Below are positions 15,045-48,762 of a stretch of 64,000 nucleotides of DNA, in pieces. A program made the position numbers and the translations under genes. Within the stretch, counting starts at the first letter, position 1. Every line of letters starts with the position of its first letter. The DNA is from an uncultured Nitrospirota bacterium (GTDB taxonomy: Bacteria; CG2-30-53-67), in contig CALZGC010000131.1 in assembly GCA_945786985.1 (NCBI GenBank), positions 946 through 64,945 of the forward strand. Reading direction: 5' to 3'. The notes below the pieces were generated by a model. It saw only the letters and a program-made list of their open reading frames with translations. It was not told the DNA's origin and searched no databases.

Positions 15045-15134
15045 TCTCAGATCTCGCGCACCGGGGAACACCCCCGCGACACCGGACGGCTGGACATCGC
15101 TTAAAGCCGGTGCGGACACATGCCGTTCGGGCCC

Positions 15135-16487
15135 TCACGATTCCGGATCGCCCATGTCCCCCATCAGCCGGGCCGAGTCGGCAGCGGGGAGCTCCGCCAC
15201 CTTCCGCAGCTTCCGTTCGATGTTTCGAGACTTGCGGGCCGCACTCTCAATGGTGTTGCCCGCTTCCTTGAGTTTCTTCTGCGTCTTCTCCAGGATGTCC
15301 CCGAACTTTCCGAACTCCGTCTTGACCGCCCCCAGGAGTGCCCATACCTCACTGGAACGCTTCTCAATGGCCAGGGTTCGGAACCCCATTTGAAGGCTGT
15401 TGAGAAAGGCCGAAAGGGTGGTAGGGCCGGTCACCGTCACCCGGTGCTCCCGCTGCAGAAAATCGAAGAGACCGGAGCGGCGCAGAACCTCCGCATAGAG
15501 CCCCTCCGTCGGCAGGAACATGACGGCGAAATCGGTGGTGTGGGGCGGGTCGATATATTTGTCTTTGATCTCCCGGGCGCTCGCCTTGATCCTGAGTTCC
15601 AGCTGTTTCGCAGCCTCCTCGGCCCGGGCAGCATCGGCCGCCTCCTGCGCGGCCAGAAGCCTTTCATAATCCTCCTGCGGAAACTTGGCATCCAGAGGGA
15701 GCCAGACTTCCTGACCATTGCTTTCGTCCCGCCCGGGAAATCGGATGGCAAACTCCACACGGTGGCTGCTGCCCCGCTTGGTCGCCACGTTTCGGGCGTA
15801 TTGATCCTGGGTCAGAATCTCCTCGAGGATCGCCCCCAGTTGGATCTCCCCCCAGGTTCCGCGGGTCTTCACATTGGTCAAAACCCGCTTGAGGTCGCCC
15901 ACACCGGCCGCCAGGGTCTGCATCTCCCCGAGCCCCTGGTGGACCATCTCGAGGCGCTCGCTCACCAGTTTGAACGACTCGCCCAGTCGCTTCTCCAGAG
16001 TTTCATGCAATTTTTCGTCCACAATCGCCCGCATCTGATCTAGTTTCCGGCTGTTTTCGTCCTGGAGGCCTTTGAGCCGGGTATCCAGGGCCTGACGCAG
16101 GGACTCGAGTTTCGCCTCATTGGTCTGTGTCAGCGATGAGAGCTGTTTGGCAAAGGAGTCGAGCTGATCCTTCTGGAGGTGTGAAATCTGCGACGTCTGG
16201 GAGAGGAGTGAGTCGGTGAAGAATTTCAGGGAGCTGCGCAGTTCGTCACGACCTTGTCTGGCGTTGTAGGCGGCTTCCTCCCGATTGACCGAGAGTTCCT
16301 CCTTGACGGCCCGTTCGATCCGTTCCTGATCCCGTTCCACGGACGAGAAGCCTTCTTCCTGGTGGCGGCGCAACGATCCGTACCGCGCCACCAGGACGAT
16401 GATCAGTATCAGAGCGACCAGGAGAAGGAGACCGCCGATGAGTGCCGGCCAGCCCGATGTCAGCAGATGTTGCAGTTGGGGGTTCAT
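15135..16487 (-). CDS. rmuC: DNA recombination protein RmuC
   Basis: N-terminal TM helix, long coiled coil and a C-terminal RmuC nuclease-like domain. Start at MNPQLQ (16487) with RBS GGAGAGG. Confidence 0.75.
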   Translation of the reverse strand: MNPQLQHLLTSGWPALIGGLLLLVALILIIVLVARYGSLRRHQEEGFSSVERDQERIERAVKEELSVNREEAAYNARQGRDELRSSLKFFTDSLLSQTSQISHLQKDQLDSFAKQLSSLTQTNEAKLESLRQALDTRLKGLQDENSRKLDQMRAIVDEKLHETLEKRLGESFKLVSERLEMVHQGLGEMQTLAAGVGDLKRVLTNVKTRGTWGEIQLGAILEEILTQDQYARNVATKRGSSHRVEFAIRFPGRDESNGQEVWLPLDAKFPQEDYERLLAAQEAADAARAEEAAKQLELRIKASAREIKDKYIDPPHTTDFAVMFLPTEGLYAEVLRRSGLFDFLQREHRVTVTGPTTLSAFLNSLQMGFRTLAIEKRSSEVWALLGAVKTEFGKFGDILEKTQKKLKEAGNTIESAARKSRNIERKLRKVAELPAADSARLMGDMGDPES

Positions 16488-16698
16488 GGGTCCTCTCCGA
16501 TTCGACACGCCCATAGCACGTCTGTGGGCGGCCCCACGAGAAGCCGCCCGGGAGCACCGACCCGGCGTCATCGTATAGCATCGATGCCGCCCGGATCAAG
16601 GAAAATTCTGGCTCGCTGTGAACCGGACCGTCTTCACGTAACACCGTGACCGCTTCTGCTTGGGATTTGAGAGAATTTTCGGCTATACTGGGGCCGCG

Positions 16699-17721
16699 AT
16701 GCGACGGATTCTCCACATCGATATGGACGCCTTTTTCGCCGCGGTCGAGGAGCGGCGACACCCCAATTTGAAGGGCCGACCGATCGTCATCGGTGGCCGG
16801 GGCGACCCGGACAGCCGCGGGGTCGTCTCCACCGCGTCCTATGCGGCAAGAAAGTATGGCGTGCACTCCGGGATCCCGCTGAGAACGGCCCTCAAGCTCT
16901 GCCCGGATGCGGTCTTCCTCCCGGTGGACTACCGGAGCTATGCCCGGGTGTCGGAGGAGATCAAGATCATTCTCGCCTCCGTGACGCCCCTCATGGAAGA
17001 CGTGGGGATCGACGAGGCCTTCCTGGATCTGTCAGCCATGGACCAGCCGCCGGAAACGATCGCCCGGGAAATCAAGAAACGGATCCTGGAGGCCACCGGC
17101 CTGAGCTGCTCCATCGGTATTGCCCCGAACAAACTGCTGGCCAAGATCGCCTCCGACCTGCAGAAGCCGGACGGACTGACCGTGCTCGGCGAAGACGATA
17201 TTGCCGAGACGATCTGGCCGCTGCCGGTTCGCAAACTTCGGGGAGTCGGCCCCAAAACCGAAAGCGTTCTCAAGCGCATGGGAGTCCATACCATCGGCGA
17301 TCTTGCCGTGGCTTCGGTGGAGCGCATGACCGAACGTTTCGGCCCGTCCCACGGGCGCACCCTCCACCGCGCCGCCCTCGGGATCGATGAAAGTCCCATC
17401 ATCATACACTGGGAGCCAAAATCCATCGGCCGGGAAACAACCTTTCAGCGGGATCTGAGCCACTGGCAGGAAATCGCCCGAGCCCTGGCCCACCTGACCC
17501 GCCAGGTCGTCTCGTCACTCAAGGCCGCCGGCTACCGCGCACGGACTGTGACGGTCAAGGTCCGATTCAGTGATTTCGACACCCAGACGCGGGCGATGAC
17601 GCTGGACGGACCGAGCGACTCCCCGGACCTCCTGAGACGGGCCGCCTTTCAGTGCCTTGGCAGGTTTGAACTGAAAAAGAGCGTCCGGCTCCTCGGGATG
17701 CGGGTGAGCAAACTGGAATAG
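16699..17721 (+). CDS. dinB: DNA polymerase IV (Y-family)
   Basis: MRRILHIDMDAFFAAVEERR... is the canonical DinB N-terminus. 340 aa. Confidence 0.85.
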   Translation: MRRILHIDMDAFFAAVEERRHPNLKGRPIVIGGRGDPDSRGVVSTASYAARKYGVHSGIPLRTALKLCPDAVFLPVDYRSYARVSEEIKIILASVTPLMEDVGIDEAFLDLSAMDQPPETIAREIKKRILEATGLSCSIGIAPNKLLAKIASDLQKPDGLTVLGEDDIAETIWPLPVRKLRGVGPKTESVLKRMGVHTIGDLAVASVERMTERFGPSHGRTLHRAALGIDESPIIIHWEPKSIGRETTFQRDLSHWQEIARALAHLTRQVVSSLKAAGYRARTVTVKVRFSDFDTQTRAMTLDGPSDSPDLLRRAAFQCLGRFELKKSVRLLGMRVSKLE

Positions 17722-17804
17722 CACGCTGCGCACCGCTGACGCCGCTCACAGGCGCCCCCGGGTCCGCACTTTACAACAGTTGCGATTTAAGGTAGTGTCC
17801 TGCC

Positions 17805-18503
17805 ATGAGTGAGTTGAGCAGGCAGTCCCCCTCCGATACTAAGAAATCCCGCTTCGGGTGGATGCACATTCTGGGAATTGCCACCGGGGTGATTCTCTTG
17901 AGCGCGCTGATCACGGTCTGGTGGGTGAAGCATAACATTTATGCGTCCCAATTCAACCCGACCCAGTTGAATGTAAAGGAACAGCGGGTTCTGGACTCCA
18001 AGCTGGCGCGACTGGAGGCGTCGGCACAGAAGACCGGCGGCAAGGCCCTCCCGAAATACGCCGAACCCCAGGCTCCGCTGGAGCCCGAACCGTATACGGA
18101 AGAAGGAGCCAAGCGGGAAATCAGCCTCACCGAAAAGGAGCTCAACGCCCTCATCGCCAATCAGCCCGAGATCGCCCAGCGCGTCGCCATTGACCTCTCG
18201 GACAACCTCGTGAGTGTGAAGCTCGTCGTGCCCGTCGATGACGAAGTGCTGTTCCTGGGCGGCAAAACGCTGCGGCTTAACCTCGGCCTTGCCCTGAACT
18301 ATCAGGCGGGTCAACCGGTGGTCGCGCTGCAGGGAGTGACCCTGGGCGGGATCCCCCTGCCCAACGCATGGCTCGGCGGGGTGAAATACAAGAATCTGGT
18401 GAACGAATTCGGCACCGAAGGGGGGTTCTGGAAGCTTTTCGCGGACGGCGTGGAAGATCTGCAGGTCCGGGATGGCCGGATCCATATCCGGCTGAAAGAG
18501 TAA
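17805..18503 (+). CDS. Hypothetical N-terminally anchored membrane protein
   Basis: 232 aa, one N-terminal TM (ILGIATGVILLSALITVWWV). No recognisable catalytic motif. Confidence 0.4.
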   Translation: MSELSRQSPSDTKKSRFGWMHILGIATGVILLSALITVWWVKHNIYASQFNPTQLNVKEQRVLDSKLARLEASAQKTGGKALPKYAEPQAPLEPEPYTEEGAKREISLTEKELNALIANQPEIAQRVAIDLSDNLVSVKLVVPVDDEVLFLGGKTLRLNLGLALNYQAGQPVVALQGVTLGGIPLPNAWLGGVKYKNLVNEFGTEGGFWKLFADGVEDLQVRDGRIHIRLKE

Positions 18504-18535
18504 CCCGCCGCGGGTTAGCCCCCCTGCATGCAGGG
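18501..18535. terminator. Tandem GC-rich hairpins between convergent genes (TAACCCGCCGCGGGTTA; CCCTGCATGCAGGG)
   Basis: A perfect 8-bp-arm palindrome overlapping the TAA stop of the upstream gene, followed by a 7-bp-arm palindrome. No U-tract. Confidence 0.35.
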
Positions 18536-18651
18536 AATCCTGCCCCGTCGCCTCACCTCTGTTCAGACCATCGTTTCCCTTTGAAACTCCATCATACCGG
18601 GCACCGGCCGATCCCTTTTCTGCAGAGGTTTCTGTTTCCTCGGACGGGCCA

Positions 18652-20268
18652 TCATCGTGCGAGATAACCGGGCGGTGTGAGCACGGTGTTCTGAGGGGCT
18701 TGCCGGATGTCGGGCTCGGGATAGTCCAGGGTGAAGTGCAGACCCCGGCTCTCTTTCCGGGCCAGAGCCGAACGGATCATCAGGTCGGCCACCACGGCCA
18801 GATTCCGCAGCTCCAGCAGGTCACTGGTCACGCGGAAGTTGCCGTAGTATTCCTGAATCTCGTTGAGCAGAAGATCCACGCGGTGTTTGGCCCGCTGCAG
18901 TCTCTTGGTGGTGCGCACAATACCGACGTAATCCCACATGAAGCGGCGCAGTTCATGCCAGTTGTGGGAAACCACCACCTCCTCATCGGAATCGGTCACC
19001 CGGCTCTCGTCCCATTCAGGCAGCGCCGCTGCATCGGGCGCAAACACTTCATGATCGTGAGTCCGGATATGCGCCGCCGCGGACTGGCCAAAGACGAGAC
19101 ATTCCAGGAGGGAGTTGCTGGCCATCCGGTTGGCACCGTGAAGTCCGGTAAACGCGACTTCCCCCACGGCATAGAGATTGTCCACGTCGGTCCGCCCGTG
19201 GAGGTCGGTCATGACGCCGCCGCATGTATAGTGGGCAGCAGGCACCACGGGAATGGGGTCGGTGGAAAGATCAAATCCGTATTCCGTGCAGCGCTTATGA
19301 ATGTTGGGGAAATGAACCTGAATGAACTCTGCCGGTTTGTGGCTGATGTCGAGGTAGACACAGTCAATGCCGAGGCGTTTCATCTCATGGTCGATGGCGC
19401 GAGCCACCACATCGCGTGGCGCCAGCTCGGCGCGGCCATCGAAGCCTTCCATGAAGGCCGTCCCATCGGGCAGACGCAGGATCGCCCCTTCCCCCCGCAG
19501 CGCCTCGGTGATCAGAAAGGATTTGGCCTCGGGATGGTAGAGGCAGGTTGGATGGAACTGGTTGAACTCCATGTTGGCCACACGGCAGCCGGCGCGCCAG
19601 GCCATGGCAATGCCATCCCCCGTGGCCACATCGGGATTGCTCGTGTAAAGATAGACCTTGCTGGCCCCGCCCGTGGCGAGCACCACATGGCGGGCCTGCA
19701 CCACTTCGACCCGTCCGCCTGCCCGGTCCAGGACATAAGCCCCCAGGCAGCGATTGTTGGCCAGTCCCAACTTCCGGGAAACAATCAGATCAACCGCAAT
19801 ATGTTTTTCATGAACGGTGATGTTCGGATGATGACGGGCCTGATCTTCCAGCGTCGTCTCGATGGCCGCGCCGGTGGCATCTTCTGCATGGATGATGCGC
19901 CGATGACTGTGGCCACCTTCCCGGGTCAGGTGATAGCCGCCGATGCCCTCCCGCCGCCCCTCGCGCGTGAAGGAGACCCCCAGGTCAATGAGCCACTGGA
20001 TGTTCTCCCGTCCGTGCTTGACGGTGTGCGCAACAACCGCCTCATCGCAGAGACCGGCCCCGGCGTTCACGGTATCTTCAATATGAGCCTCGAGGGAGTC
20101 CTCCAGGTCGAGCACGGCTGCGAGCCCGCCCTGTGCGTAGTACGTGCCGCCTTCCCGGAGGATATCTTTGGAAATGACAGTGATACGGTAGGTGTCGGCC
20201 AGACGCAGTGCAAGACTCAGGCCCGCCGCGCCCGACCCGATGACCAGAATGTCGCTTTCGCGCTGCAT
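18652..20268 (-). CDS. nadB: L-aspartate oxidase
   Basis: FAD-binding [13 protein letters not shown]-terminus, succinate dehydrogenase/fumarate reductase flavoprotein fold. Start at MQRESD (20268). Confidence 0.85.
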
Positions 20269-20368
20269 GACTCGCCTCGATTGGGCTCCACCGAACCCGG
20301 GATCAACCCGGTTTGTCCCGGGCCCAAGACCGCTGCTCCGTGAGGCGTCCCGTCTTGCCGTCACGGCC

Positions 20369-20794
20369 TCAGTTGAATGTATCCAGAATATACTGGGCGA
20401 TCAGCCGTGCCTGATCGTCGGGCAGCGTCGTTTCATCGTAGCGCGCCATCCCGGGTCCGGGGTTTCGAATGGTCTGTACGATAGCCTCCACCGAGTTGGT
20501 GCCGTGGGTGTCCCGATCGGCCTTGCTGAGCGTCTTCTTGGGATTAATGATGTTGCCACCCCCGGCGTGACACATGGCACACAGCTCCTTGAAGAGCGCT
20601 TCTCCCGAACGTTCTCCTGCGGCGCTCTTGGCTGTTTCCATCGGCGCAGGCGCCGGTGCAGCTGCTTGCGGGGCCGGCTTCTCGGCCACGGCAGCAGGCT
20701 TTGCCTTCTCTGCGGGCTGCTGCTGACAACCGCCGGACCAAAACAAGAGGCACATCAGACACAGGGAAAGAACCATTGCAAAAAGATTTCTCAT
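20369..20794 (-). CDS. Monohaem c-type cytochrome (class I, lipoprotein-type signal)
   Basis: Signal peptide [23 protein letters not shown] and a single CAMCH haem-binding motif. RBS AAGGAGGAGA. Confidence 0.6.
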
Positions 20795-20921
20795 GCCCAC
20801 TCTCCTCCTTGGTGAATTTTTGTGGATGCCAAGAACCACAGCTTCTTCGCCGCAAGATGTTCGGGCACGCGGCGGGTGCATGGGGCCCGACGGCGCCGCG
20901 CCGTCCTACGCTATCTCTGGA

Positions 20922-38259: not shown

Positions 38260-40098
38260 ATGCAAAAACGAATCATCCTCCTGGTTATGCTCAGTATGCT
38301 GATCATTCTGGTCAGTCTCGGGATCATCAGTCAACTGAGCGTAAACAATTCTATTCAACGGTCTCTGGACAAACGGCTGACGCTGGCATCCATCATCAGC
38401 CGCTACTTCGACTACATCCTCGAGACCAACCTCACCCGGCTGTATGACATCTCCATCTCGGGACGGGTGGACTTTGCGGATCAGAACTGGGTGCCTGAAA
38501 CAAAGGCCCTCAAAACTGCTTACGAATATTCCATCTTTACGGATCGTATTTTTCTTCTCGACCAGCACGGCAATGTGGTGTTGAATTATCCCCTGCAGGA
38601 GAGCGGGAAGGTGAATCTCCTGAGCATCCCCGCGGTTAGTCGAGTCATGGCGGAGGGCAAGCCGGTGGTCTCCGATGTGTTCACCATGGAACCGACCAAA
38701 AAGAAAGTGATCCTGGCGCTCGTCCCCCTGAAGGATAGGAACGGAGAAAACATCGGTGTGGCCGGCGGGGAGATTAACCCCACGAATTATCTGTTCAACC
38801 AGATGATCAAGTCCATCCCGACGGAGACGGCCACCTGCATCGAACTCGTCGACAGTCAGGGAATCATTATTGCCTCCAACATCCCCAAACGGATTCTCAC
38901 CTGCAGCGACCACAACCAGTTTCTCGGCAAGCTCATCGCCGCACGCAAGAGTTCGGTGGGCACCTGTCACCGCTGCCACCTTGAAGAAGGCTCGCAGAAA
39001 CGTAAAACCAAGGACATGCTGGCCTTCTCACCGCTCTCTGTCGCCCCCTGGGGAATCTCTCTGCGGGAGCCCCAGGATTCGGTCTTCTCCCCAGCCATCA
39101 CCCTGAGACGCAATTTTGTCATCCTCGGCGTCATCGCCCTCGGTGCGGCCCTCGTCCTGGCTATGGGCATGAGCCGCAGCATCGTGCGGCCCATCCAGCT
39201 CCTCATTCAGGCATCCCAGCGGCTGGGGCGGGGAAATCTTCACGAACCCGTTGCCATCACGAGCCGGGACGAAACGGGAGTGCTGGCCGACAGTTTCGAA
39301 GTGATGCGACAGAAACTCGCAGCCTCCCTGGAGCGCATCCAGAAACAGAATCTCGAACTGGAGCAGCGGGTCCTGGACAGAACGGAAGAACTGGAGATGA
39401 GCCGCAAGAAGCTGGCCCGCCTGTACCGAAAGAACATTTCTGTACAGGAGGAAGAGCGCAAACGCATCGCCCGGGAGCTGCATGACGAAACGAGCCAGTC
39501 CCTGAATGCCGTCCTCATTTCCCTGGATACGCTCAACATCGTGTTGCATCAAAGCAATGCCAACCGCACCCATCTGGAAAAGCTGAGAAAAAATGTGGCC
39601 GCCACCCTTCAGGGGATACATCAACTCATCCAGGATCTCCGGCCACCCGTTCTGGACGATCTCGGTCTCGATTCGGCCATTCGGTGGGTGCTGGAGGGAC
39701 ATCTGGGCGCCAGGGGGATCGGCTATTTTTTTGAGACAGAGGGAGCATGCCCGAACACCTCCTCCAACGGCGGAACGGGGGCGGTCGATTGTGCCACCCT
39801 GGAACTGACGCTCTTCCGCGTCATCCAGGAGGCTGTCATCAACATTGAAAAGCACGCCGACGCCAAACATGTTTTTGTGTCGCTTGTCTTCCAAGAAGCC
39901 CATGTGGAGGTCGAAATCGAAGACGACGGGCGGGGGTTCGATGTAGATCGCGTCTACACCACAGTGGAGACGGCGCGCGATACCGGTTCTTTCGGTCTGC
40001 TTGGGATGCGGGAGCGGGTGGCCCTACTGGACGGGCGGCTCACCATCTGCTCGAGACCACATGAGGGGACCCATATCAGCATGACCATCCCCTTCTGA
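38260..40098 (+). CDS. Sensor histidine kinase, NarX/UhpB type (periplasmic Cache-like domain, HAMP, HisKA_3, HATPase)
   Basis: N-terminal TM, a ~270-aa periplasmic domain and a second TM, then HAMP and the HisKA_3 H-box EERKRIARELHDETSQ. 612 aa. RBS GGGAG. Confidence 0.8.
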   Translation: MQKRIILLVMLSMLIILVSLGIISQLSVNNSIQRSLDKRLTLASIISRYFDYILETNLTRLYDISISGRVDFADQNWVPETKALKTAYEYSIFTDRIFLLDQHGNVVLNYPLQESGKVNLLSIPAVSRVMAEGKPVVSDVFTMEPTKKKVILALVPLKDRNGENIGVAGGEINPTNYLFNQMIKSIPTETATCIELVDSQGIIIASNIPKRILTCSDHNQFLGKLIAARKSSVGTCHRCHLEEGSQKRKTKDMLAFSPLSVAPWGISLREPQDSVFSPAITLRRNFVILGVIALGAALVLAMGMSRSIVRPIQLLIQASQRLGRGNLHEPVAITSRDETGVLADSFEVMRQKLAASLERIQKQNLELEQRVLDRTEELEMSRKKLARLYRKNISVQEEERKRIARELHDETSQSLNAVLISLDTLNIVLHQSNANRTHLEKLRKNVAATLQGIHQLIQDLRPPVLDDLGLDSAIRWVLEGHLGARGIGYFFETEGACPNTSSNGGTGAVDCATLELTLFRVIQEAVINIEKHADAKHVFVSLVFQEAHVEVEIEDDGRGFDVDRVYTTVETARDTGSFGLLGMRERVALLDGRLTICSRPHEGTHISMTIPF

Positions 40099-40188
40099 AG
40101 CGACCGACCCGAAGCCCATCGTACATCCGGTGGCCACCGGACGAATCATCGTCAGCGCCCGACGCGGGTGTTGCAGAGAAGGGACGCC

Positions 40189-40839
40189 ATGCCCAAGACA
40201 CGCATTCTCGTCGCCGATGACCATGCCTTGGTGCGGGAGGGAGTCTCCGCCCTGCTGCAGTTGCAGGACGACATGGAGGTGGTGGGCGAAGCCTGCGACG
40301 GACGAGACGCAGTCCGGCTAACGGCAAAACTCAAACCGGACATCGTGCTGATGGACATCGCCATGCCGGGGCTGGGGGGTCTCGAAGCCACCACTGAACT
40401 CAGGAAAACCATGCCCGAGATCAGCATCCTCATCCTGAGCCAGTACGACGACCGCGAATACATCAGCAGGCTGCTCAAAGCGGGGGTGTCGGGCTATATA
40501 CTCAAACACGCGGTCGGCACGGACCTGGTATCGGCCATCCGGGCCGTGGCTCGGGGGGAGTTTTATCTCTACTCCGGTATCGCCTCATCCGTAATCGACG
40601 GCTTTCTCGACAGGAAACAGGCCTTTGCCGAGGACCCCTATGACAAGCTCACGGACCGGGAGAAACAGGTCCTCAAACTGATTGCCGAGGGAAACACCCA
40701 TAAGGAGATTGCCGAACTTCTCAACATCAGCACCAAGACCGTCATCGCCCATCAGACCCATCTTTCGGAGAAACTGGATATCCATTCCCGAGCGGAGCTC
40801 ATCAAGTTTGCCATTCGGAGAGGCATCATCAAAATCTGA
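40189..40839 (+). CDS. NarL/LuxR-family response regulator (REC + LuxR HTH)
   Basis: RILVADDHALVREG...D..MPGLGG REC domain and a C-terminal GNTHKEIAELLNISTKTV HTH. 216 aa. Confidence 0.85.
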   Translation: MPKTRILVADDHALVREGVSALLQLQDDMEVVGEACDGRDAVRLTAKLKPDIVLMDIAMPGLGGLEATTELRKTMPEISILILSQYDDREYISRLLKAGVSGYILKHAVGTDLVSAIRAVARGEFYLYSGIASSVIDGFLDRKQAFAEDPYDKLTDREKQVLKLIAEGNTHKEIAELLNISTKTVIAHQTHLSEKLDIHSRAELIKFAIRRGIIKI

Positions 40840-40840
40840 G

Positions 40841-41836
40841 ATGAATCTTTTTGACTTCCTGAACTCCTACGCCGGGATGTATCTCGTGCAGTCTTTCGTG
40901 CATTCGCTAATCACCGCCATCGTGGTGGACCGGGCGATCAATGCCTGGCGAATCGTGAACCCCCTCGTGATTCAACGCTTCCGGCTGCTGGTCATCCTGC
41001 TGCCGGTTCTCTCCTTTCCCCTCTTCCAGTGGATGCATCCCGAGCGCGGCGCCGTCGACTTTCGGCTTCGCGCACTCTTTGACAGCGCCCGATGGCTCAA
41101 TCTGGAGCTCTTCGGCGCGCTCTCGGTGCACCTACTCTTCGTGGGCTTGCTGCTCATTGCGGGCCTCGTCTTCCTCGTGCAGGAGCTGATCCCCTTGGTG
41201 CGACACACCTTTCTCTCGAAAAGATCTGCGGTTCCTCGAACCCCAGCCGACGAGCACGCACATGTGGCCCGAGCGCTGGAGGATCTTCCCGGGGAAAAGC
41301 CGGCGGTTTATCTCATGGACGATGATGCCTTCACGGTTCTTTCAACCACGGGAAGTGACTCGGCTATTTTTCTCTCCACGGGACTCCTGGAGGTCCTGAG
41401 CCCCTCACAGCTCCAGGCCGCCATCGCCCATGAGATGGCCCACATTCAACGGAGCAAGAGACCTCTGCTGGTAATCGTCTACCTTTTCCGCATACTCATG
41501 TTTCTCAACCCTGTTGTCCTGCTGGAATTTCGCAGAATCGCGCAGGAAGAGGAGAATATCTGTGACGACATGGCCGTATCCATGACCCGGAATCCCCGGG
41601 CTCTGGCGGATACCCTTCGGAATGTCTACGGGACCCAGCGGGATCCCGCGCCGGCGGGGCGCGGGAAACTGGCGGCCGTTAACGAGGCCCTGGAAGACTA
41701 CAGCCATCGGCTGCTGATCGAAAAAAGGATCAATCGGCTGACGGAAGCACGGAGCGACGGGGCACCGAAACGGGGTCGACTGGGCTGGGTGCTCACGGCT
41801 GCGGCCGTCTCGGTGATCAACTATTTTGTGGTTTGA
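40841..41836 (+). CDS. M56-family (BlaR1-like) membrane metallopeptidase
   Basis: Four N-terminal TM helices, the HEXXH motif AIAHEMAHIQR, and a C-terminal TM. The ATG lies 1 nt after the response-regulator TGA. 331 aa, with no large extracellular sensor domain. Confidence 0.7.
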   Translation: MNLFDFLNSYAGMYLVQSFVHSLITAIVVDRAINAWRIVNPLVIQRFRLLVILLPVLSFPLFQWMHPERGAVDFRLRALFDSARWLNLELFGALSVHLLFVGLLLIAGLVFLVQELIPLVRHTFLSKRSAVPRTPADEHAHVARALEDLPGEKPAVYLMDDDAFTVLSTTGSDSAIFLSTGLLEVLSPSQLQAAIAHEMAHIQRSKRPLLVIVYLFRILMFLNPVVLLEFRRIAQEEENICDDMAVSMTRNPRALADTLRNVYGTQRDPAPAGRGKLAAVNEALEDYSHRLLIEKRINRLTEARSDGAPKRGRLGWVLTAAAVSVINYFVV

Positions 41837-41855
41837 AGGAACCGGGGAACAACCG

Positions 41856-42383
41856 ATGCGAGATGCACTGCGAGGTCTCCTCTCTTTTGCCGCCATTTTG
41901 CTGGTTCTGCTGGCCGCCCTGAAGCTGCTCAACTGGGCGCCCACCGTGTTGGACCCGGGGGGCCTGCGGGAATATCCCAACGTCCCCGCGGTCAGGGCCG
42001 CGCTGCAGGTGCAGGACCTGCTGGTCCCGTCCTATTTTCCCGAACAGGTCCGCTGGCCTCCTCGCCGCATCCTTGCCCAGAGCAAACCCTACCCGGCCAT
42101 GGCCGTGACCTATGACGGGACGCACCAGGAGGAGACTGTCCTGCACACCACCCAGGCGGCGTCGGCCGAGTTTGCCCCCGAAACGGGGATTGCGCCCACC
42201 ACCCTGCGTGAAACCGTGCCCTACGACCTCAATGGCCGAGAAGCGATTCTGGAAGTGGGTGTGTGCAGCAACGGAGCGCCTTGCAGCCGCCTCACGTGGC
42301 AGCAGGATCGATACTGGATCAAAGTCGAGATGGTCTCGTCCCCGTTCGAGTTGATCAAGATCGCGCAAAGCATGCGTCCGTGA
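41856..42383 (+). CDS. Hypothetical signal-anchored periplasmic protein
   Basis: MRDALRGLLSFAAILLVLLAALKLL N-terminal anchor. 175 aa. Follows the M56 gene with a 19-bp gap. Confidence 0.4.
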   Translation: MRDALRGLLSFAAILLVLLAALKLLNWAPTVLDPGGLREYPNVPAVRAALQVQDLLVPSYFPEQVRWPPRRILAQSKPYPAMAVTYDGTHQEETVLHTTQAASAEFAPETGIAPTTLRETVPYDLNGREAILEVGVCSNGAPCSRLTWQQDRYWIKVEMVSSPFELIKIAQSMRP

Positions 42384-42655
42384 CATCGCCCCGGTGCGCA
42401 CACCCGTGCCCGCCACAGCCCATGGCAAGGAACCTCCAGGTACCCCTTCCCGGTTGACGCTGCCGCACAAAGGTGTCGTTTATTTGTATCAAGAACTGTA
42501 GAAGTGTTCGTGAATTAGAACAGATTCTCTCCTCGAAACACACTTTACATCGCGCCTAAGACAAAAATCACCTCAAAATAGGAACTTCTTCCAATTGTTG
42601 GGACCGCTCGTCTTCGATATAAATCAAACATAACATGGGAAAGGAGGTGAGCTTG

Positions 42656-43048
42656 ATGTTTAGATACAAAGGAGGCGATTGGGTAACAGAAGGCACGTAT
42701 TGGAACCTGGTCTCAGGAAGGCGGGTCGATGCCACGGGGGAGGGGTTGGCGCTTCCGGGCGCACGGAACCTCGTTTACCTTCGCATGCCCGCCGGCGTGA
42801 TGCTGCTGTCCGGCCCGCTGTTCGGGTTGTTGTACATCGTTTTTTTCCCAATGATCGGCATCGCCGCATTGAGCTTTTTCACGGTACGGGGGATTTTCAG
42901 AGGGGCCTTTGGCCTGTTGTCCAGGGCCATGTACTTTGAGTGGCGACCGGCCGAGGCCTATTTGGCCGGAAGAAAAAGGCGGTCCAAGAAACAGAAACAA
43001 GAGCAAGGGGACGGTTCGAAGCAGAAGGACAGCGAAGCGCAATCTTAA
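42656..43048 (+). CDS. Small two-TM membrane protein with basic C-terminal tail (paralog A)
   Basis: 130 aa. RBS AGGAGGTGA. Shares with the next gene a conserved hairpin-like hydrophobic core and the motif F(E/D)WRPxEAYLAG(R/K)K followed by a Lys/Glu-rich tail. Confidence 0.45.
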   Translation: MFRYKGGDWVTEGTYWNLVSGRRVDATGEGLALPGARNLVYLRMPAGVMLLSGPLFGLLYIVFFPMIGIAALSFFTVRGIFRGAFGLLSRAMYFEWRPAEAYLAGRKRRSKKQKQEQGDGSKQKDSEAQS

Positions 43049-43106
43049 GTTTTCCATGATCCCGGCGGGGTGCCCTGCACCCCCCATTTGAAGAGGAGGA
43101 GAAACC

Positions 43107-43532
43107 ATGAATACCTATTTCGATTTCATCACACATGTCAAGGGGATTGAGTACCTCGTCGCCATCGGTTCCATTGTCGGATTCATCGTGCTCTGGGAGG
43201 TCCTGAAGCCCAAGCCCTTCTCCAAAATGGTGCACTCGGCCAAAGAGGATCTGACCTATATGAAAGCAGGCGGTTCCAGGCAGGCCCTCCGAAACGTGGG
43301 CAAACTGGTGAGTGCTCCCTTCATCGGACTGGCTTATGTGATCAGTCTACCCATTGCCTTTATGGGTGCCCTGCTTTTCGCCACCGTCAACGGCCTGATG
43401 AACTACGTCGGCCGGACCACCTCCTTCGATTGGCGGCCCATGGAAGCATACCTGGCCGGCAAAAAACACAAGAAGACAGAAGCCCGTGGAGAGGAAGAAA
43501 AGCCTGCGCCCAAGAAGACCGAGCAGGACTAG
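43107..43532 (+). CDS. Small two-TM membrane protein with basic C-terminal tail (paralog B)
   Basis: 141 aa. RBS GAGGAGGAGAAACC. Shares ...SFDWRPMEAYLAGKKHKK... with paralog A. Confidence 0.5.
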   Translation: MNTYFDFITHVKGIEYLVAIGSIVGFIVLWEVLKPKPFSKMVHSAKEDLTYMKAGGSRQALRNVGKLVSAPFIGLAYVISLPIAFMGALLFATVNGLMNYVGRTTSFDWRPMEAYLAGKKHKKTEARGEEEKPAPKKTEQD

Positions 43533-43570
43533 CCGTCATCCACACCCGATCAAAGAGGAGGTCATATCCC

Positions 43571-44044
43571 ATGGAAGCCACAAGAGCAATCCCCATTTTG
43601 ATTTGCGCCACCTTGCTGACGGCGGCCTTTGCTTCCTGGCTTTACGCCGGGGACACCGGCCCCGTGCCCCAACCGGGCGTAGTGACTCTGGACAGCCTGA
43701 GCGATCAGTACGAACCGGTGACCTTCGATCATGAGATGCACGTCATGGTCGCGGAGGAGTGCGCCCAATGCCACCATCAGCACGGAAGCCGGGTAACCCG
43801 GTCCTGCGGGGACTGTCACACCCTCAATTCGGAGGCCTTTAGACGCACAGCAGTCAACACGTTCACGCCTTGCCAGGACTGCCACGGCGAATACGATCCC
43901 GATACGCCGCAGATGCCGGGCCTCAAGGGAGCCTACCACCGCACCTGTTTCGCATGTCATCGCGGGATGGGGCAAGTCGGTCTGGACCCGACGGGTTGCA
44001 CCCAAATGTGCCACGCGAAGAGAGACCGGATGGCCGGAAAATGA
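43571..44044 (+). CDS. Periplasmic tetrahaem cytochrome c3-family protein
   Basis: Signal peptide, then four CxxCH (CAQCH, CGDCH, CQDCH, CFACH) plus one CxxxCH (CTQMCH). The VTFDHEMH context resembles c3 haem-1 regions. RBS AAAGAGGAGG. Confidence 0.75.
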   Translation: MEATRAIPILICATLLTAAFASWLYAGDTGPVPQPGVVTLDSLSDQYEPVTFDHEMHVMVAEECAQCHHQHGSRVTRSCGDCHTLNSEAFRRTAVNTFTPCQDCHGEYDPDTPQMPGLKGAYHRTCFACHRGMGQVGLDPTGCTQMCHAKRDRMAGK

Positions 44045-44101
44045 CGCGCAGAGTCCGCGGCCCCGCAAAGGCTGCGGTGTTTGCTGAAAGGAGGTTTCGC
44101 A

Positions 44102-45112
44102 ATGACACAGGAGAGACAAGAGAAGGGGGCCGGCGGCCTGCAGCACGGGGGGCGCCGTTCCGACAGCACGGATCAACCCCATGGACCGTGCGGCATCAAC
44201 CGCAGAGGCTTTCTCGGCGTCATGGGAGCGGTGAGCGGGTCGGCCCTGCTGGCCAGCGCCGCAGAGGTTCATGCATACAAGCAGTTCGAAGGATGGCCCG
44301 ATCGCTACGGCATGCTGTCCGACCTGACAGCCTGTGTGGGCTGCCGCAGCTGTGAACGGGCCTGCAACGAGGCCAACGGCCTGCCCAAACCGAAAAAGTC
44401 CTTTGACGACGGATCGGTTTTTGCCGAACTGCGGCGGACCGATGATAAAACTTACACCGTGGTCAATCGCTATGAAAACCCCGGGGACCCCGGGACGCCC
44501 GTCTATCGCAAGGTCCAGTGCATGCACTGCAACGAGCCGGCCTGCGCCACGGCCTGCCCTATCCATGCCTACTCCAAAACTCCCGAAGGGGCCGTCATGT
44601 ACGATCCGGACAAGTGTTTTGGTTGCCGGTACTGCATGGTGGCCTGCCCCTTCGGCATTCCGACCTATGACTACGAGAGTGCCTTTCAGCCCCGGATCTA
44701 CAAGTGCGTGCTGTGCTATGACCGCCTCAAGGTCGGCCAGATACCGGCCTGCGCCCAGGGTTGCCCGACGGAGGCCATTACCTTCGGGAAACGGTCCGAC
44801 CTGCTCCGACTCGCGCGAGAGAGGATCCTGGAACACCCGGATCGCTACATCGACCATATCTACGGAGAGCATGAAGCCGGGGGCACCAGCTGGCTCTATC
44901 TGTCGTCGGTCCCCTTCGGCCAACTCGATTTTCCCACCAACCTGCCGGACAGGCCGCTGGTGGAAGAGACCAAGGGATTTCTCTCCTCGGTGCCGGTGGT
45001 GTTTACCGTCTGGCCGGCCCTCTTCGGGATGATCTACGCGTCGGTTCGCCACCGCGATGCCTTGCAGGAAGAGCTGAAACAAGAGCAGGAAAAAGAGGAG
45101 GAGAGACAATGA
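44102..45112 (+). CDS. Tat-exported 4Fe-4S ferredoxin-type subunit (HmcB/DsrO/NrfC/PsrB-like)
   Basis: Twin-arginine motif RRGFLGVMGAVSG. Four Cys clusters (CVGCRSCERAC, CMHCNEPACATACP, CFGCRYCMVACP, CVLCYDRL..C..CP). RBS AAAGGAGG. Confidence 0.8.
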   Translation: MTQERQEKGAGGLQHGGRRSDSTDQPHGPCGINRRGFLGVMGAVSGSALLASAAEVHAYKQFEGWPDRYGMLSDLTACVGCRSCERACNEANGLPKPKKSFDDGSVFAELRRTDDKTYTVVNRYENPGDPGTPVYRKVQCMHCNEPACATACPIHAYSKTPEGAVMYDPDKCFGCRYCMVACPFGIPTYDYESAFQPRIYKCVLCYDRLKVGQIPACAQGCPTEAITFGKRSDLLRLARERILEHPDRYIDHIYGEHEAGGTSWLYLSSVPFGQLDFPTNLPDRPLVEETKGFLSSVPVVFTVWPALFGMIYASVRHRDALQEELKQEQEKEEERQ

Positions 45113-46347
45113 ACCATCATGAGACCGCTGTGAAAACTGATAACTTTCGGGCATGGTTCATGGACAAGCTGCTGATGGGGATGGACTGGCCGGACTATAT
45201 GCGACAGCTGATCACGCCGTTTAACATCATCGCCGCCATCATTCTCAGCATCGGTCTGCCGCTGATAGCCATCCGCTTCATCTACGGCCTGGCCTCGGTG
45301 ACGCACGCATCACAGGATTATCCCTGGGGGATCTTTCTCGGCTGGGGGCTCTTCGGGGGCGTGCCCCTCTCGGCCACAGGCTTTGTGTTGGCCACGGCCT
45401 ACTACATCTTCGGGTTCAAGAAGTACAAACCGCTGGTGCGGCTGGCCGTGCTCGCGGGTTTTCTGGGGTACCTCTTCGCCGTGATCTATCTGCTCTGCGA
45501 TCTGGGGCGGCCCTGGCGGATTTACTACCCCATGATCATCGGGTTCGGGACAGCCTCGGTCCTCTTTCTCGTGGCCTGGCATGTGGCCACCTATCTGACC
45601 GTGCAGTTCCTTGAGTTCAGCCCGGCCATCCTGGAGTGGCTCCAGTCCAAACGTATTCGCAAATGGGCCTTGAGTATCACCATTGCCATGACTATCGCCG
45701 GGATCATTCTCTCAACCCTGCACCAGTCGGCGCTGGGGGCCATGTTCCTTCTGGCGCCGGGGAAGATGCACCCGCTCTGGTATTCGTCCTATCTGCCGGT
45801 CCTCTTCCTCTGCTCGAGCATCTATGCGGCGCTGAGCATGGTCATTGTGGTGAGCACCCTGGCTGCCCGCTTCCTGAAAAAGGCCGCGGACCAGACGTTC
45901 CTGAGCAACCTGAATCCACTGACCTTGGGCCTGGGCAGGGGCGCCTCCCTGACGATGTACGTCTATTTCGTGCTTAAACTCATCAGCGTTGCCCACGATA
46001 ACAATTGGGCCCTGTTGGCAACGCCCTATGGCCAGTGGTTTCTCCTGGAGATCGTCGGCTTTGTGCTGCTGCCGGCCCTGATCCTGAGCCTCGGAGTCAA
46101 GACGGGCCGTGTCGGAATCGTCCGACTGGGAGCCTTCGCCGGTGCGCTCGGCATCGTGGTGAACCGTATCAACGTCTCCATGGTGGCACTCAATTGGAAC
46201 TTGCCGGACCATCTGCATCACATCGTTCCGCCCTGGCAGGAAGTCGCCATTGTCCTCGCCATCGCGACGATCCACGTTCTCGTCTTTCGCTGGATCCTGA
46301 TGCGCATGCCGGTGATTCGAGAGGCACCGGAGTACACGGACCATTAG
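45109..46347 (+). CDS. NrfD/PsrC/HmcC-family polytopic membrane quinone-interacting subunit
   Basis: 412 aa, about 10 TM helices, NrfD-like pattern. Its ATG overlaps the upstream TGA (ATGA coupling). Confidence 0.8.
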   Translation: MNHHETAVKTDNFRAWFMDKLLMGMDWPDYMRQLITPFNIIAAIILSIGLPLIAIRFIYGLASVTHASQDYPWGIFLGWGLFGGVPLSATGFVLATAYYIFGFKKYKPLVRLAVLAGFLGYLFAVIYLLCDLGRPWRIYYPMIIGFGTASVLFLVAWHVATYLTVQFLEFSPAILEWLQSKRIRKWALSITIAMTIAGIILSTLHQSALGAMFLLAPGKMHPLWYSSYLPVLFLCSSIYAALSMVIVVSTLAARFLKKAADQTFLSNLNPLTLGLGRGASLTMYVYFVLKLISVAHDNNWALLATPYGQWFLLEIVGFVLLPALILSLGVKTGRVGIVRLGAFAGALGIVVNRINVSMVALNWNLPDHLHHIVPPWQEVAIVLAIATIHVLVFRWILMRMPVIREAPEYTDH

Positions 46348-46520
46348 CAAGCCCCCAACCCGCGGCCCGGTTGTGCACCACCGATTGGGGTCATTGTGCA
46401 CCGGACCGCGGGGAACCCCGTCGCCCCAAGGGGTTGCATTGCGGCCCCCGGTGCGGCGGGAGAGAGCAGCGGGCCGATAAACGGCTCGAGACAACGTGAG
46501 CGGATCAAGGGGAGGGCGCC

Positions 46521-47966
46521 ATGCACGGACGAAAACAACTGATCGGGTGGCTCACCGCCTGCCTAATTCTCATCCAGCCTGCGATTACGCAAGCCACAGT
46601 CCCCGCAAGCCCCACGTCCGAAACCCAGAATTGCCTGGTCTGCCATGGCCGCGAACCGGCCGAAAAAGGCGGCATAGGCGAGGAACCGAGGGCGCCCTAC
46701 GTCGATATGGCCGCCCTGAAGACGTCCGCGCATCCCAACACCGCCTGCTCCGAATGCCACCGGGAGTTCGCATCGGGTAAACACCCGGACCCACGCTTTC
46801 GGGATGCACAGCAGCGGAAACTCCGGTATGCGTTGAAGTGCAGAGAATGCCATTCGGACGCGGAGATCACGCTGAAACCGATCCATGCCCGTCTGCTGGA
46901 GAACGCGCAGGAGGGGGATGCCCCCGTGTGTACCGACTGCCACGGCGCCCACAATGTCACTCCCATCTCGGGGGGGAAGGTCCTGCAGAGTGAGCGGCGT
47001 TACTGCCAGGGGTGTCATGAGCACCCCGTCACCACGGACCTCCGAAGCGGCGAGACTCTGATGCTGCAAACCGACTTAACGGTACTGGACGGGTCCGAGC
47101 ACCACATGCTCAGCTGCTCAGACTGCCATTTCGGCTTCTCCTCCCAGGAGCATCCGCAGCGCAATTTCCGAACATTGCGGGATTACGCGATCGCCTCCTC
47201 GGACAGCTGCAAGCGCTGCCACTTTGACAAACATACCCGCACGCTGGAGAGCATTCATTATGCCATCCTGAACCAAGGAAACCAGAGCGCGCCGGTCTGT
47301 ACCGACTGCCACGGCGCCCACGGGATTGCGGCCGTCGGCAAGGATCGCGCCTTTAGTGCGACACGCTGCAAGCAATGCCACGCGGCGGTTTATGAAACCT
47401 ACGCCCACAGCGTACACGGCAACGCCCTGATCAACGAGCGCAACCAGGACGTGCCGGTCTGCATCGACTGCCACCGGGCGCACGACATCGTCAATCCCCT
47501 GACCCTGGAATTTCACGACGGCATTCCCGACACTTGCGCCAACTGCCATTCCAACAAACGGATCATGGGCAAATACGGTCTTTCCACCGACGTGGTCAAG
47601 ACCTATCTCTCAGATTTCCACGGGGTCACCCTGAATTTCTACAGAAAACAGAAAGAAGCCCTTCTCAAACCCGGACGGCCCATCGCCGTCTGCACCGATT
47701 GCCACGGTACCCATGATATTGCCGGCGACGCCGATACGGATCCCCTGATTGTCAAGGGGCGCTTGCTGAAACGGTGTCAGAAGTGCCACCCCGATGCCAC
47801 AGAGAATTTCTCCGATGCCTGGCTGTCCCACTATGAGCCGACCCTGGAGAAGGCGCCGATCGTCTATCTGGTGAATCTGAGCTACAGGATTTTCCTGCCG
47901 GTGATGGTGGTGGGCCTGATCCTGCAGATACTGCTGCACATCTGGCGGTATGCGGTCAACCGCTGA
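46521..47966 (+). CDS. Multihaem cytochrome c (13 CxxCH motifs) with C-terminal membrane anchor
   Basis: Signal peptide. 13 CxxCH motifs including three CTDCHGxH repeats. C-terminal TM IFLPVMVVGLILQILLHIW. Confidence 0.85.
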   Translation: MHGRKQLIGWLTACLILIQPAITQATVPASPTSETQNCLVCHGREPAEKGGIGEEPRAPYVDMAALKTSAHPNTACSECHREFASGKHPDPRFRDAQQRKLRYALKCRECHSDAEITLKPIHARLLENAQEGDAPVCTDCHGAHNVTPISGGKVLQSERRYCQGCHEHPVTTDLRSGETLMLQTDLTVLDGSEHHMLSCSDCHFGFSSQEHPQRNFRTLRDYAIASSDSCKRCHFDKHTRTLESIHYAILNQGNQSAPVCTDCHGAHGIAAVGKDRAFSATRCKQCHAAVYETYAHSVHGNALINERNQDVPVCIDCHRAHDIVNPLTLEFHDGIPDTCANCHSNKRIMGKYGLSTDVVKTYLSDFHGVTLNFYRKQKEALLKPGRPIAVCTDCHGTHDIAGDADTDPLIVKGRLLKRCQKCHPDATENFSDAWLSHYEPTLEKAPIVYLVNLSYRIFLPVMVVGLILQILLHIWRYAVNR

Positions 47967-48003
47967 CCGCGCTCCTCAAGCGCGTGCAGCAACGGAGGCT
48001 ACT

Positions 48004-48762
48004 ATGAAGAACCGCAAAATAAACGGTGGAATGATCCGCCGCTTCAGCCCCCTGCGACTGGCCGAGCACTGGGTGAACGCAGGCGCCATCGCCGTTCTCG
48101 TGCTGACCGGGCTCGCACAGAAGTTCCACACCCTGGAGGCGTCCCAGTGGTTTGTGCTGCACCTGGGCGGCATCGATACGGTCCGCCTCATCCACCACAC
48201 GGCAGGCGTCGTGGTGATCCTGCTGACCCTGCAGCATATCTTGGCTACCTCCTTCCTGGTCGTCTTGCGAAAGGGGCAGCCCGGCATGTTGATCAACAAG
48301 AAGGATGTGGCCGATACGCTGGAAAACCTGCGGTACTACTTTGGACTGCGGCAGAGCCCGGCCCTCTGCGACCGATACGATTACAAGCAGAAGTTTGAGT
48401 ACTGGACGATCCTGACGGGCCAGATCCTGATGACCGTCTCCGGCCTCATTCTCTGGTTTCCGACGGTTGCGGCTCGCTTCCTGCCGGGCGAATTCATTCC
48501 GGCCGCCAAGGCGCTGCACACCAATGAAGCCCTGCTCATTTTCCTCCTCATCGCCGTCTGGCATATCTACAATGCCATCTTCAGCCCCGACGTCTTCCCC
48601 CTGGACACGAGCATCTTCACCGGTCGCATCTCACGGGAGCGGATGGTCCACGAACACCCCCTGGAGTTGGGAAGAATGGAGGGAATCCCTCTGGAGGCCG
48701 TTCTGAAAGAAAGACGGGAGGAGATGCACCTTCTGGACGCGGAGAGCCCCCTGCTGCACTAA
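48004..48762 (+). CDS. Di-haem cytochrome b membrane subunit (FdnI / NiFe-hydrogenase CybH-like)
   Basis: Four TM helices with conserved His (..AEHWVNAG.., ..LIHHTAG.., ..ALHTNEA.., ..WHIYN..). RBS ACGGAGG. Confidence 0.65.
   Translation: MKNRKINGGMIRRFSPLRLAEHWVNAGAIAVLVLTGLAQKFHTLEASQWFVLHLGGIDTVRLIHHTAGVVVILLTLQHILATSFLVVLRKGQPGMLINKKDVADTLENLRYYFGLRQSPALCDRYDYKQKFEYWTILTGQILMTVSGLILWFPTVAARFLPGEFIPAAKALHTNEALLIFLLIAVWHIYNAIFSPDVFPLDTSIFTGRISRERMVHEHPLELGRMEGIPLEAVLKERREEMHLLDAESPLLH

Follow-up and report, generated by a model that had tools for sequence, protein, structure and literature searches.

In Hmc and Hyd-2, electrons are described as going from the periplasm toward the quinone pool or the cytoplasm, and FdnI, the b-type subunit of Escherichia coli formate dehydrogenase-N, reduces quinone. 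Nhc is described in a review of NrfD proteins as carrying electrons from the periplasm to the quinone pool or cytoplasm. According to the paper on the DsrMKJOP structure, DsrP oxidises quinol, and this complex provides a precedent for quinol oxidation at an NrfD subunit on the positive (P) side of the membrane, with electrons passing through an Fe-S protein and haem c to a b-type subunit. Geobacter CbcBA, a quinone-linked inner-membrane oxidoreductase, is by genetics a low-potential quinol oxidase, and its reverse operation has been proposed in syntrophic sulfate reducers. Here, we analyze a locus with relatives of these systems in a 64,000-nucleotide stretch (referred to as the window) of contig CALZGC010000131.1, positions 946 to 64,945, from an uncultured Nitrospirota bacterium (assembly GCA_945786985.1). 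An earlier note, made from the sequence alone, had singled out five adjacent redox genes at 43571 to 48762 of the window as a unit. These genes belong to a larger, conserved island, which is probably a self-regulated respiratory unit composed of two quinone-coupled electron-transfer modules, neither of which has a catalytic site.

Gene content and conservation of the island

The conserved unit comprises about 11 genes, encoding a peptidase, a 175-residue protein, two HmcD-like paralogues, five redox proteins, a kinase, and a regulator. The five redox open reading frames (ORFs) lie on the + strand exactly where the earlier note had placed them, with the ATGA overlap that couples the Fe-S and NrfD genes, and their domains were confirmed with Pfam and NCBIfam. 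All five coincide with the gene calls of CAMYNS010000001.1 (GCA_947259695.1), and a GGAGG-type ribosome-binding site lies ahead of each. They encode a periplasmic, most likely pentahaem, cytochrome c (43571 to 44044), a Tat (twin-arginine translocation)-exported, HmcB/HybA-like protein with four [4Fe-4S] clusters and a C-terminal transmembrane (TM) anchor (44102 to 45112), an HmcC/HybB-like membrane subunit of the NrfD family without redox cofactor motifs (45109 to 46347), a 13-haem cytochrome c that has a signal peptide and, at its C terminus, a TM helix (46521 to 47966), and an FdnI/HydC-type cytochrome b with four helices and two haems (48004 to 48762). The remaining genes, also on the + strand, encode a sensor histidine kinase with dCache_1, HAMP, HisKA_3, and HATPase domains (38260 to 40098), a NarL/LuxR-type response regulator with Response_reg and GerE domains (40189 to 40839), a BlaR1-like membrane metallopeptidase homologue of the M56/M48 type with an HExxH motif (40808 to 41836), all three from Pfam matches, the 175-residue protein (41856 to 42383), and two small paralogous membrane proteins that we call up1 (42656 to 43048) and up2 (43107 to 43532).

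Relatives were sought with a profile of the 13-haem protein, and a scan of one genome per GTDB species returned 217. The best 80 of these 217 loci were taken with 10-kb flanks, and the locus counts given here refer to these 80. Gene order was counted in the 62 of them with at least 4 kb upstream and at least 2.3 kb downstream, the kinase and regulator in the 66 with enough flank, and the peptidase and the 175-residue protein in the 55 with at least 6.2 kb upstream. Synteny was established by tblastn with the window proteins and by all-against-all ORF clustering. By their labels, about 56 of the loci belong to Nitrospirota (among them Thermodesulfovibrionales, Ca. Sulfobium, and Dissulfurispiraceae), 15 to "Deltaproteobacteria"/Thermodesulfobacteriota/Deferrimicrobia, and 9 to other taxa; all 80 come from uncultured genomes, nearly all labelled metagenome-assembled genomes (MAGs) and a few bearing just a name of the kind "Bacterium BMS3Bbin05." The closest relative of the window is the locus L001 of a Nitrospirae MAG, with protein identities of 85 to 94%, which makes a Nitrospirota host, and not a Desulfovibrio, probable for the window as well.

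The order up, cytochrome c, Fe-S, NrfD, 13-haem cytochrome, cytochrome b is kept in 58 of 62 loci, mostly in Nitrospirota and Deferrimicrobia MAGs. The locus had been called unusual, which holds only with respect to characterised complexes; in nature it is common, and the recurrence of its order in other genomes goes beyond chance. A dCache_1-HAMP-HisKA_3 kinase is present in 65 of 66 loci and a GerE-type response regulator in 64, while the M56/M48 peptidase homologue and the anchored 175-residue protein are each found in 49 of 55. The kinase and regulator genes come after the cytochrome b gene in most loci; L001 and the window have them ahead of the peptidase gene, so that all eleven genes, from 38260 to 48762, are codirectional. 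The pairwise divergences of the components all correlate with one another (r = 0.45 to 0.78), consistent with inheritance of the island as a unit.

Promoter and terminator scans gave no more than shuffled sequences did, and Rfam had no match in the window between 37500 and 49600. One G+C-rich hairpin with a weak T-run lies directly after the pentahaem stop codon (44055 to 44077, + strand); although the terminator scan overall was at shuffle level, this hairpin could allow attenuated read-through that sets the stoichiometry of cytochrome and membrane subunits.

The two modules and their proteins

Natural variants break the cluster at a single site, the junction between the NrfD and 13-haem genes, where the insertions and inversions among them also fall. 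What had been read as a five-gene unit is a cluster of about 11 genes in two separable modules. On the basis of homology, module A (up2, the pentahaem cytochrome, the HmcB-like Fe-S protein, and the HmcC-like NrfD protein) is assigned to the Hmc/Nhc type, and module B (up1, the anchored 13-haem cytochrome, and cytochrome b) to the CbcBA/FdnHI type. Module A is missing and module B present in L083/L008, L026, and L054. In L083 (the same place as L008, in a Thermodesulfobacteriota MAG), the genes for the peptidase, the 175-residue protein, one up protein, the 13-haem cytochrome, cytochrome b, the kinase, and the regulator are present, and those for the small cytochrome, the Fe-S protein, and NrfD are missing. 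The lone up copy lies directly ahead of the 13-haem gene; an up copy thus stays with the 13-haem/cytochrome b pair in the absence of the NrfD module. In L084, one strand carries the regulator gene together with those for up, cytochrome c, Fe-S, and NrfD, and this unit converges with a set encoding two up proteins, a multihaem cytochrome, cytochrome b, and the kinase, such that the split modules share one kinase and one regulator. An additional kinase gene is inserted at the junction in L085. As a separate observation, L083 carries a second cluster just downstream on the - strand (14938 to 19021), encoding a 355-residue multihaem cytochrome, a 307-residue Ni_hydr_CYTB cytochrome b, and a 692-residue cytochrome with 16 CxxCH motifs.

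In the window, the modules are separated by a GC-rich spacer of 173 nucleotides (46348 to 46520, + strand), located at the junction where the variants break the cluster. It is predicted to form several hairpins (-91 kcal/mol; z = -2.35 against shuffles) and has neither a T-tract terminator nor an Rfam match. Its identity to the L001 spacer is 85%, about the level of the coding regions. Across the family the gap between the NrfD and 13-haem genes has a median of ∼40 nucleotides, a lower bound because it was taken from longest-ORF starts, and cotranscription across the junction is therefore plausible in general and may hold in the window.

Within module B, the CxxCH motifs of the 13-haem protein number exactly 13, in agreement with the earlier count, and its chain ends in a TM helix. 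None of the 13 motifs varies among 30 homologues, and 13 further histidines are likewise invariant, as is His473, which is located inside the conserved C-terminal helix LQILLHIWRYAVNR. A four-haem unit of ∼123 residues is duplicated in tandem in this protein (residues 62 to 237 versus 185 to 346; 31% identity, E = 3e-20). Its sole sequence match in the PDB, obtained with a profile, is 28pb_A, a 278-residue "Cytochrome c" (E = 2.7e-6), to which five consecutive N-terminal haem motifs and several distal histidines align in register. This entry is probably the crystal structure of Geobacter CbcA that a 2026 review cites under the code "2BPB." In a library clustered at 50% identity, 289 representatives match the 13-haem protein at an E value of 1e-30 or below. 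Many of them are shorter (340 to 450 residues) and share the C-terminal ∼320 residues including the anchor, which places the protein in a broad family of C-terminally anchored multihaem cytochromes. It has no NCBIfam match, and none to HmcA in particular. An AlphaFold2 model built from the 30-sequence alignment (mean predicted local distance difference test [pLDDT] score of 58; predicted template modelling score of 0.34) is too poor for conclusions on fold or shape.

The gene for the 13-haem protein is directly followed by that for cytochrome b in 78 of 80 loci. Cytochrome b has four TM helices, matches Ni_hydr_CYTB (E = 1.6e-13), and gives FdnI-type matches. His22, His64, His172, and His187 are invariant in 80 sequences and align with His18, His57, His155, and His169 of FdnI, which we take to be the haem ligands of the E. 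coli protein. Because these four histidines are conserved, two bis-His b haems would be expected across the membrane.

Within module A, the small cytochrome had been described as a tetrahaem c3. Motif counts and homology instead point to a pentahaem protein of the HmcA-domain type, with four CxxCH motifs and one CxxxCH motif. All five motifs are found in 65 of 67 ORFs of the family, and the other 2 are the two pieces of a gene that is split in L018. Another five histidines, candidate distal ligands, are conserved at 90% or more. With five motifs in every intact member and five additional conserved histidines, a pentahaem cytochrome is the most likely assignment. It aligns to the C-terminal domain of HmcA and to that of the nine-haem cytochrome NhcA (PDB 1GWS, 1H29, and 19HC; E values of ∼1e-17 to 1e-11), not to free type I c3. 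The match to the HmcA model covers only positions 486 to 540 of 541 and scores 52.7 bits (cutoff, 400), and that to the nine-haem model scores 43.7 bits (cutoff, 640).

The Fe-S protein matches Fer4_11 (E = 9e-21) and, among NCBIfam models, HmcB best (409.2 bits; cutoff, 420), followed by HybA (233 bits). An RR Tat motif and 16 cysteines, enough for four clusters, are conserved in its family, and the chain ends in a TM helix. The NrfD protein matches PF03916 (E = 2e-20) and is likewise closest to HmcC (441.9 bits; cutoff, 550), followed by HybB (192 bits). It is the most conserved component, with a mean pairwise distance of 0.29, or ∼71% identity on average across the family. A homologue search with it was filled by family members of 73 to 78% identity and so could not show at what point the association with module B is lost.

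The up1/up2 family comprises 135 ORFs spread over 66 loci, each of which has between 1 and 6 copies, and is recognised by the motif F-x-W-R-P-x-E-A-Y after the TM segment, followed by a Lys-rich tail. The two-TM protein up2, conserved in position, is considered HmcD-like from a weak NCBIfam match of its N terminus to HmcD (E = 4.9e-5; 23 bits; cutoff, 34). A weak precomputed match to PF28260 (DVU_0533) is on record for up2, and our own Pfam scans of it returned nothing.

The linked proteins suggest how the island might be controlled. Around residue 236, within the periplasmic dCache_1 domain, the kinase carries the haem-binding motif CHRCH; a CxxCH motif occurs at the same position in 43 of 79 family ORFs, including that of the window, and is absent from the rest. 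This motif suggests that the Cache domain is a c-type-haem sensor of redox state or of a ligand in the periplasm, and expression of the island is probably under the control of this kinase and the NarL-type regulator. The peptidase family conserves an AHExAH motif, and no BlaI-type repressor lies near its gene. The 175-residue protein has an N-terminal TM helix and a periplasmic beta-sheet domain (AlphaFold2 mean pLDDT, 90.9). A fold search against the PDB returned nothing significant, the best hit having an E value of 0.02 with a weak RseB/PsbP/DcrB-like resemblance. Assembly, quality control, and signalling are possible roles for both proteins.

Elsewhere in the window, at ∼18652 to 20800 on the - strand, a 538-residue FAD_binding_2/Succ_DH_flav_C flavoprotein is encoded beside a 141-residue monohaem cytochrome c of the Cytochrome_CBB3 type and a CxxCxxCC protein. 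These genes may form a flavocytochrome-like pair that is unrelated to the island.

Predicted electron flow and its alternatives

By motif, the island encodes 18 haems c, four [4Fe-4S] clusters, and two haems b. No molybdopterin, NiFe, or HdrD-like gene is found within ∼10 kb on either side of the 13-haem gene in the window, which upholds the earlier statement that a catalytic molybdopterin or NiFe subunit is missing. Nor do the 80 loci share a conserved cytoplasmic redox subunit within ±10 kb. The absence of a linked catalytic gene, together with a conserved candidate sixth ligand for every c haem, argues for an electron-transfer device rather than an enzyme.

Judging from NrfD-family complexes, including DsrMKJOP, module A would have its quinone site close to the membrane's periplasmic face, beside an Fe-S cluster, and would pass electrons on to five presumably bis-His haems in the periplasm. 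In module B, by analogy with formate dehydrogenase-N, the quinone site would lie near the cytoplasmic face, and the two b haems would move electrons across the membrane, linking this site with the 13-haem chain carried on the C-terminal anchor helix. Together, the modules would join the menaquinone pool to periplasmic carriers via two sites on opposite faces of the membrane. The earlier note had proposed a conduit from menaquinol to periplasmic or extracellular cytochromes and had stressed the presence of two quinone-interacting membrane modules at once. A link between quinone and periplasmic cytochromes is the most reasonable function, and both the NrfD-type and the b-type module are present; their combination, however, has precedents in Hmc and DsrMKJOP. 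An extracellular destination, while possible, is without support from the local context, where a further ORF with at least four haem motifs lies within ±10 kb in only 4 of 80 loci (L008, L026, L066, and L067) and outer-membrane porins were not searched for.

How the modules would work together can be graded more cautiously. Our tentative preference is for paired modules, one reducing and one oxidising menaquinone; parallel routes running in the same direction are possible, and fusion of the modules in one continuous supercomplex is unlikely. Both modules are kept together in most lineages and module B is able to stand alone, from which we infer that complementary roles are somewhat favoured over redundancy; the pool would then be reduced by one module and oxidised by the other, or the two would act as energetic "gears."

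Several points weigh against a unit of two quinone-coupled modules. The HmcB and HmcC scores are under the NCBIfam equivalog cutoffs. The predicted quinone sites are based on homology, and DsrM shows that such a site in a b subunit can be nonfunctional. The direction of electron flow is not readable from sequence, and the poor model of the 13-haem protein provides no test of an extended wire or of docking surfaces. The spacer of 173 nucleotides interrupts the gene series in the window, and, finally, the hosts are MAGs.

The alternative that survives best is that the island holds two independent complexes, an Nhc-like periplasmic cytochrome:menaquinone oxidoreductase and a CbcBA-like menaquinol:cytochrome oxidoreductase, which share a neighbourhood and a regulator but have separate partners. 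The variants described above, with module B alone (L083/L008, L026, and L054), the modules convergent (L084), or a gene inserted between them (L085), are in line with this explanation, as are the spacer at the junction in the window and the fact that Nhc and CbcBA are each viewed as standing alone. Against it, the modules adjoin in 58 of 62 informative loci from several phyla, their divergence is correlated, and a dedicated kinase and regulator are common to both even when they are split. We regard two independent complexes as a rather doubtful explanation and retain the single unit with two quinone-coupled modules.

A more speculative version of the latter is a redox loop between two periplasmic pools. 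Electrons would enter through the 13-haem protein and the b haems and reduce menaquinone at the cytoplasmic face with uptake of protons from the cytoplasm; menaquinol would be reoxidised at the NrfD site at the periplasmic face with release of protons outside, and the electrons would leave through the Fe-S protein and the pentahaem cytochrome. In a dual-site variant that could be termed a "gear shift," the quinone site on the P side or the negative (N) side would be chosen according to the potential of the acceptor, under the control of the haem-c Cache redox sensor. We consider the loop, or this variant of it, unlikely. If it were true, energy would be conserved from a redox span lying wholly in the periplasm or outside the cell, with no cytoplasmic reaction involved.

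Very unlikely, in our judgement, is a single Hmc/Dsr-like supercomplex in which quinol is oxidised at NrfD and electrons run through the Fe-S protein, the pentahaem cytochrome, and the 13-haem cytochrome to b haems that serve as a mere transmembrane wire to an unlinked cytoplasmic acceptor. DsrMKJOP operates in this manner, and Hmc, whose HmcB, HmcC, and HmcD have homologues here, also pairs NrfD with a cytochrome b. The b subunit of the island, however, is of the FdnI type and not of the NarI/HdrE type that docks HdrD-like proteins, the 80 loci conserve no cytoplasmic redox subunit nearby, and module B is found alone. A periplasmic multihaem enzyme with one of the 18 c haems catalytic, for example one that reduces or oxidises a sulfur, nitrogen, or metal species, was rejected as hardly credible because, even though NrfA and MccA are wired to NrfD/Fe-S modules (as summarised in the NrfD review) and the PDB search gave weak profile matches to NrfA-type proteins, those matches are short and not significant, a second histidine is conserved for every haem motif (13 of 13 and 5 of 5), and there is neither a CxxCK motif nor a conserved Cys or Lys as a ligand candidate.

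With more than 200 species-level genomes carrying it, the island ranks as a strong candidate for a major, as yet unnamed respiratory complex in uncultured anaerobes. Groundwater, peat, sediments, and the deep subsurface hold Nitrospirota of the Thermodesulfovibrionia type and Deferrimicrobia (MBNT15) in abundance; to our knowledge, little has been established about the ways in which these organisms connect their quinone pool with redox partners in the periplasm or outside. The island brings together 18 c haems, its own sensor and regulator, and both main classes of membrane anchor that react with quinones, and it offers a natural test case for why Hmc, Dsr, and similar complexes have two quinone-type subunits. 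A redox loop or a potential-dependent switch, if true, would be a new bioenergetic solution. If the modules are merely two adjacent oxidoreductases, the locus would still be useful as a genomic marker and would give expression studies a defined target.

Comparison with described complexes

In literature searches on Nitrospirae/Thermodesulfovibrionia, Deferrimicrobium, NrfD with cytochrome b and multihaem cytochromes, 13-haem cytochromes, and Nhc/Ohc/Tmc, we found no paper that names or analyses a complex of this composition. The view that the locus matches none of Hmc, Qrc, Nhc, and Tmc as whole complexes stands. Its proposed resemblance to Geobacter Cbc complexes holds in part: the last two of the five redox genes are CbcBA-like, whereas the first three and the upstream HmcD-like gene are closest to Hmc/Nhc and not to Cbc4.

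Hmc of Desulfovibrio/Nitratidesulfovibrio vulgaris provides the best NCBIfam matches of the island (HmcB, HmcC, and, weakly, HmcD) and a C-terminal HmcA domain similar to the small cytochrome, and it likewise combines NrfD-type and b-type membrane subunits with a periplasmic Fe-S protein and multihaem cytochrome c. Where HmcA has 16 haems, the island distributes 5 and 13 over two proteins. HmcE is a NarI/HdrE-type cytochrome b accompanied by the HdrD-like HmcF, in contrast to the FdnI-type subunit of the island, which has no CCG/HdrD-like gene within ∼10 kb, and the HmcD-like genes of the island are duplicated and placed upstream. Nhc of Desulfovibrio desulfuricans (NhcABCD) shares with the island a multihaem cytochrome c, a four-cluster Fe-S protein, an NrfD protein, and a small membrane subunit (for up2, an assignment to D from weak matches), as well as the lack of a cytoplasmic subunit. 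It differs in the cytochrome, which has nine haems rather than five, in the position of the D-like gene, which comes first in the island, and in having no counterpart of the 13-haem/cytochrome b pair, which always accompanies the Nhc-like genes here.

Module B finds its nearest likeness in CbcBA of Geobacter sulfurreducens (GSU0593-0594), in which a C-terminally anchored multihaem cytochrome c with a His in its TM helix is followed, in the same c-then-b order, by a four-helix dihaem cytochrome b similar to FdnI/HydC, with a regulator adjacent. CbcA has 7 haems and the island protein 13, the latter by way of the duplicated four-haem unit. CbcB, compared here by its description only, is reported with three histidines, whereas the island protein keeps all four of FdnI. 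The neighbouring regulator of CbcBA is the sigma-54 type BccR, and that of the island is a NarL-type two-component system (HisKA_3 kinase and GerE regulator). CbcBA is, moreover, without an NrfD module; in the island, module B is coupled to one of the Hmc/Nhc type. FdnI of E. coli formate dehydrogenase-N (PDB 1KQF) is the sole solved homologue of the b subunit (E = 4e-7), with the four ligand histidines aligned, and its partner FdnH is similarly a periplasmic protein held by its own C-terminal helix. That partner is part of an Fe-S/molybdoenzyme; in the island it is a multihaem cytochrome whose helix carries an invariant His.

Other complexes are more distant. DsrMKJOP likewise unites subunits of the NrfD and b types with Tat Fe-S and haem c subunits in a single system, but the island lacks DsrK, the NarI-type DsrM, and the trihaem DsrJ, its b subunit belongs to another family, and its Fe-S protein scores 108 bits with DsrO (cutoff, 200). 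Geobacter Cbc4 (CbcSTU) and DsrOhPhCyt of cable bacteria resemble module A in combining, in three genes, a cytochrome c with a four-cluster Fe-S protein and an NrfD-like protein; CbcS is an N-terminally anchored tetrahaem cytochrome of the NapC/NirT type, unlike the pentahaem cytochrome of the island, which has a signal peptide and is of the c3/HmcA-domain type. Compared with Qrc (QrcABCD), the island has no molybdopterin-family gene and gives low scores with QrcC (67.8 bits; cutoff, 400) and QrcD (63 bits; cutoff, 570). Alternative complex III has ActB, a molybdopterin-like/Fe-S fusion, two NrfD-like subunits, and the monohaem ActE, whereas the island has a single NrfD gene and nothing like ActB. 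Membership in Qrc, alternative complex III, and Dsr was rejected on the grounds that their defining subunits are missing from the locus. We conclude that no single characterised complex has the composition or gene order of the island and that both of its modules are of known kinds, joined in a conserved and regulated island.

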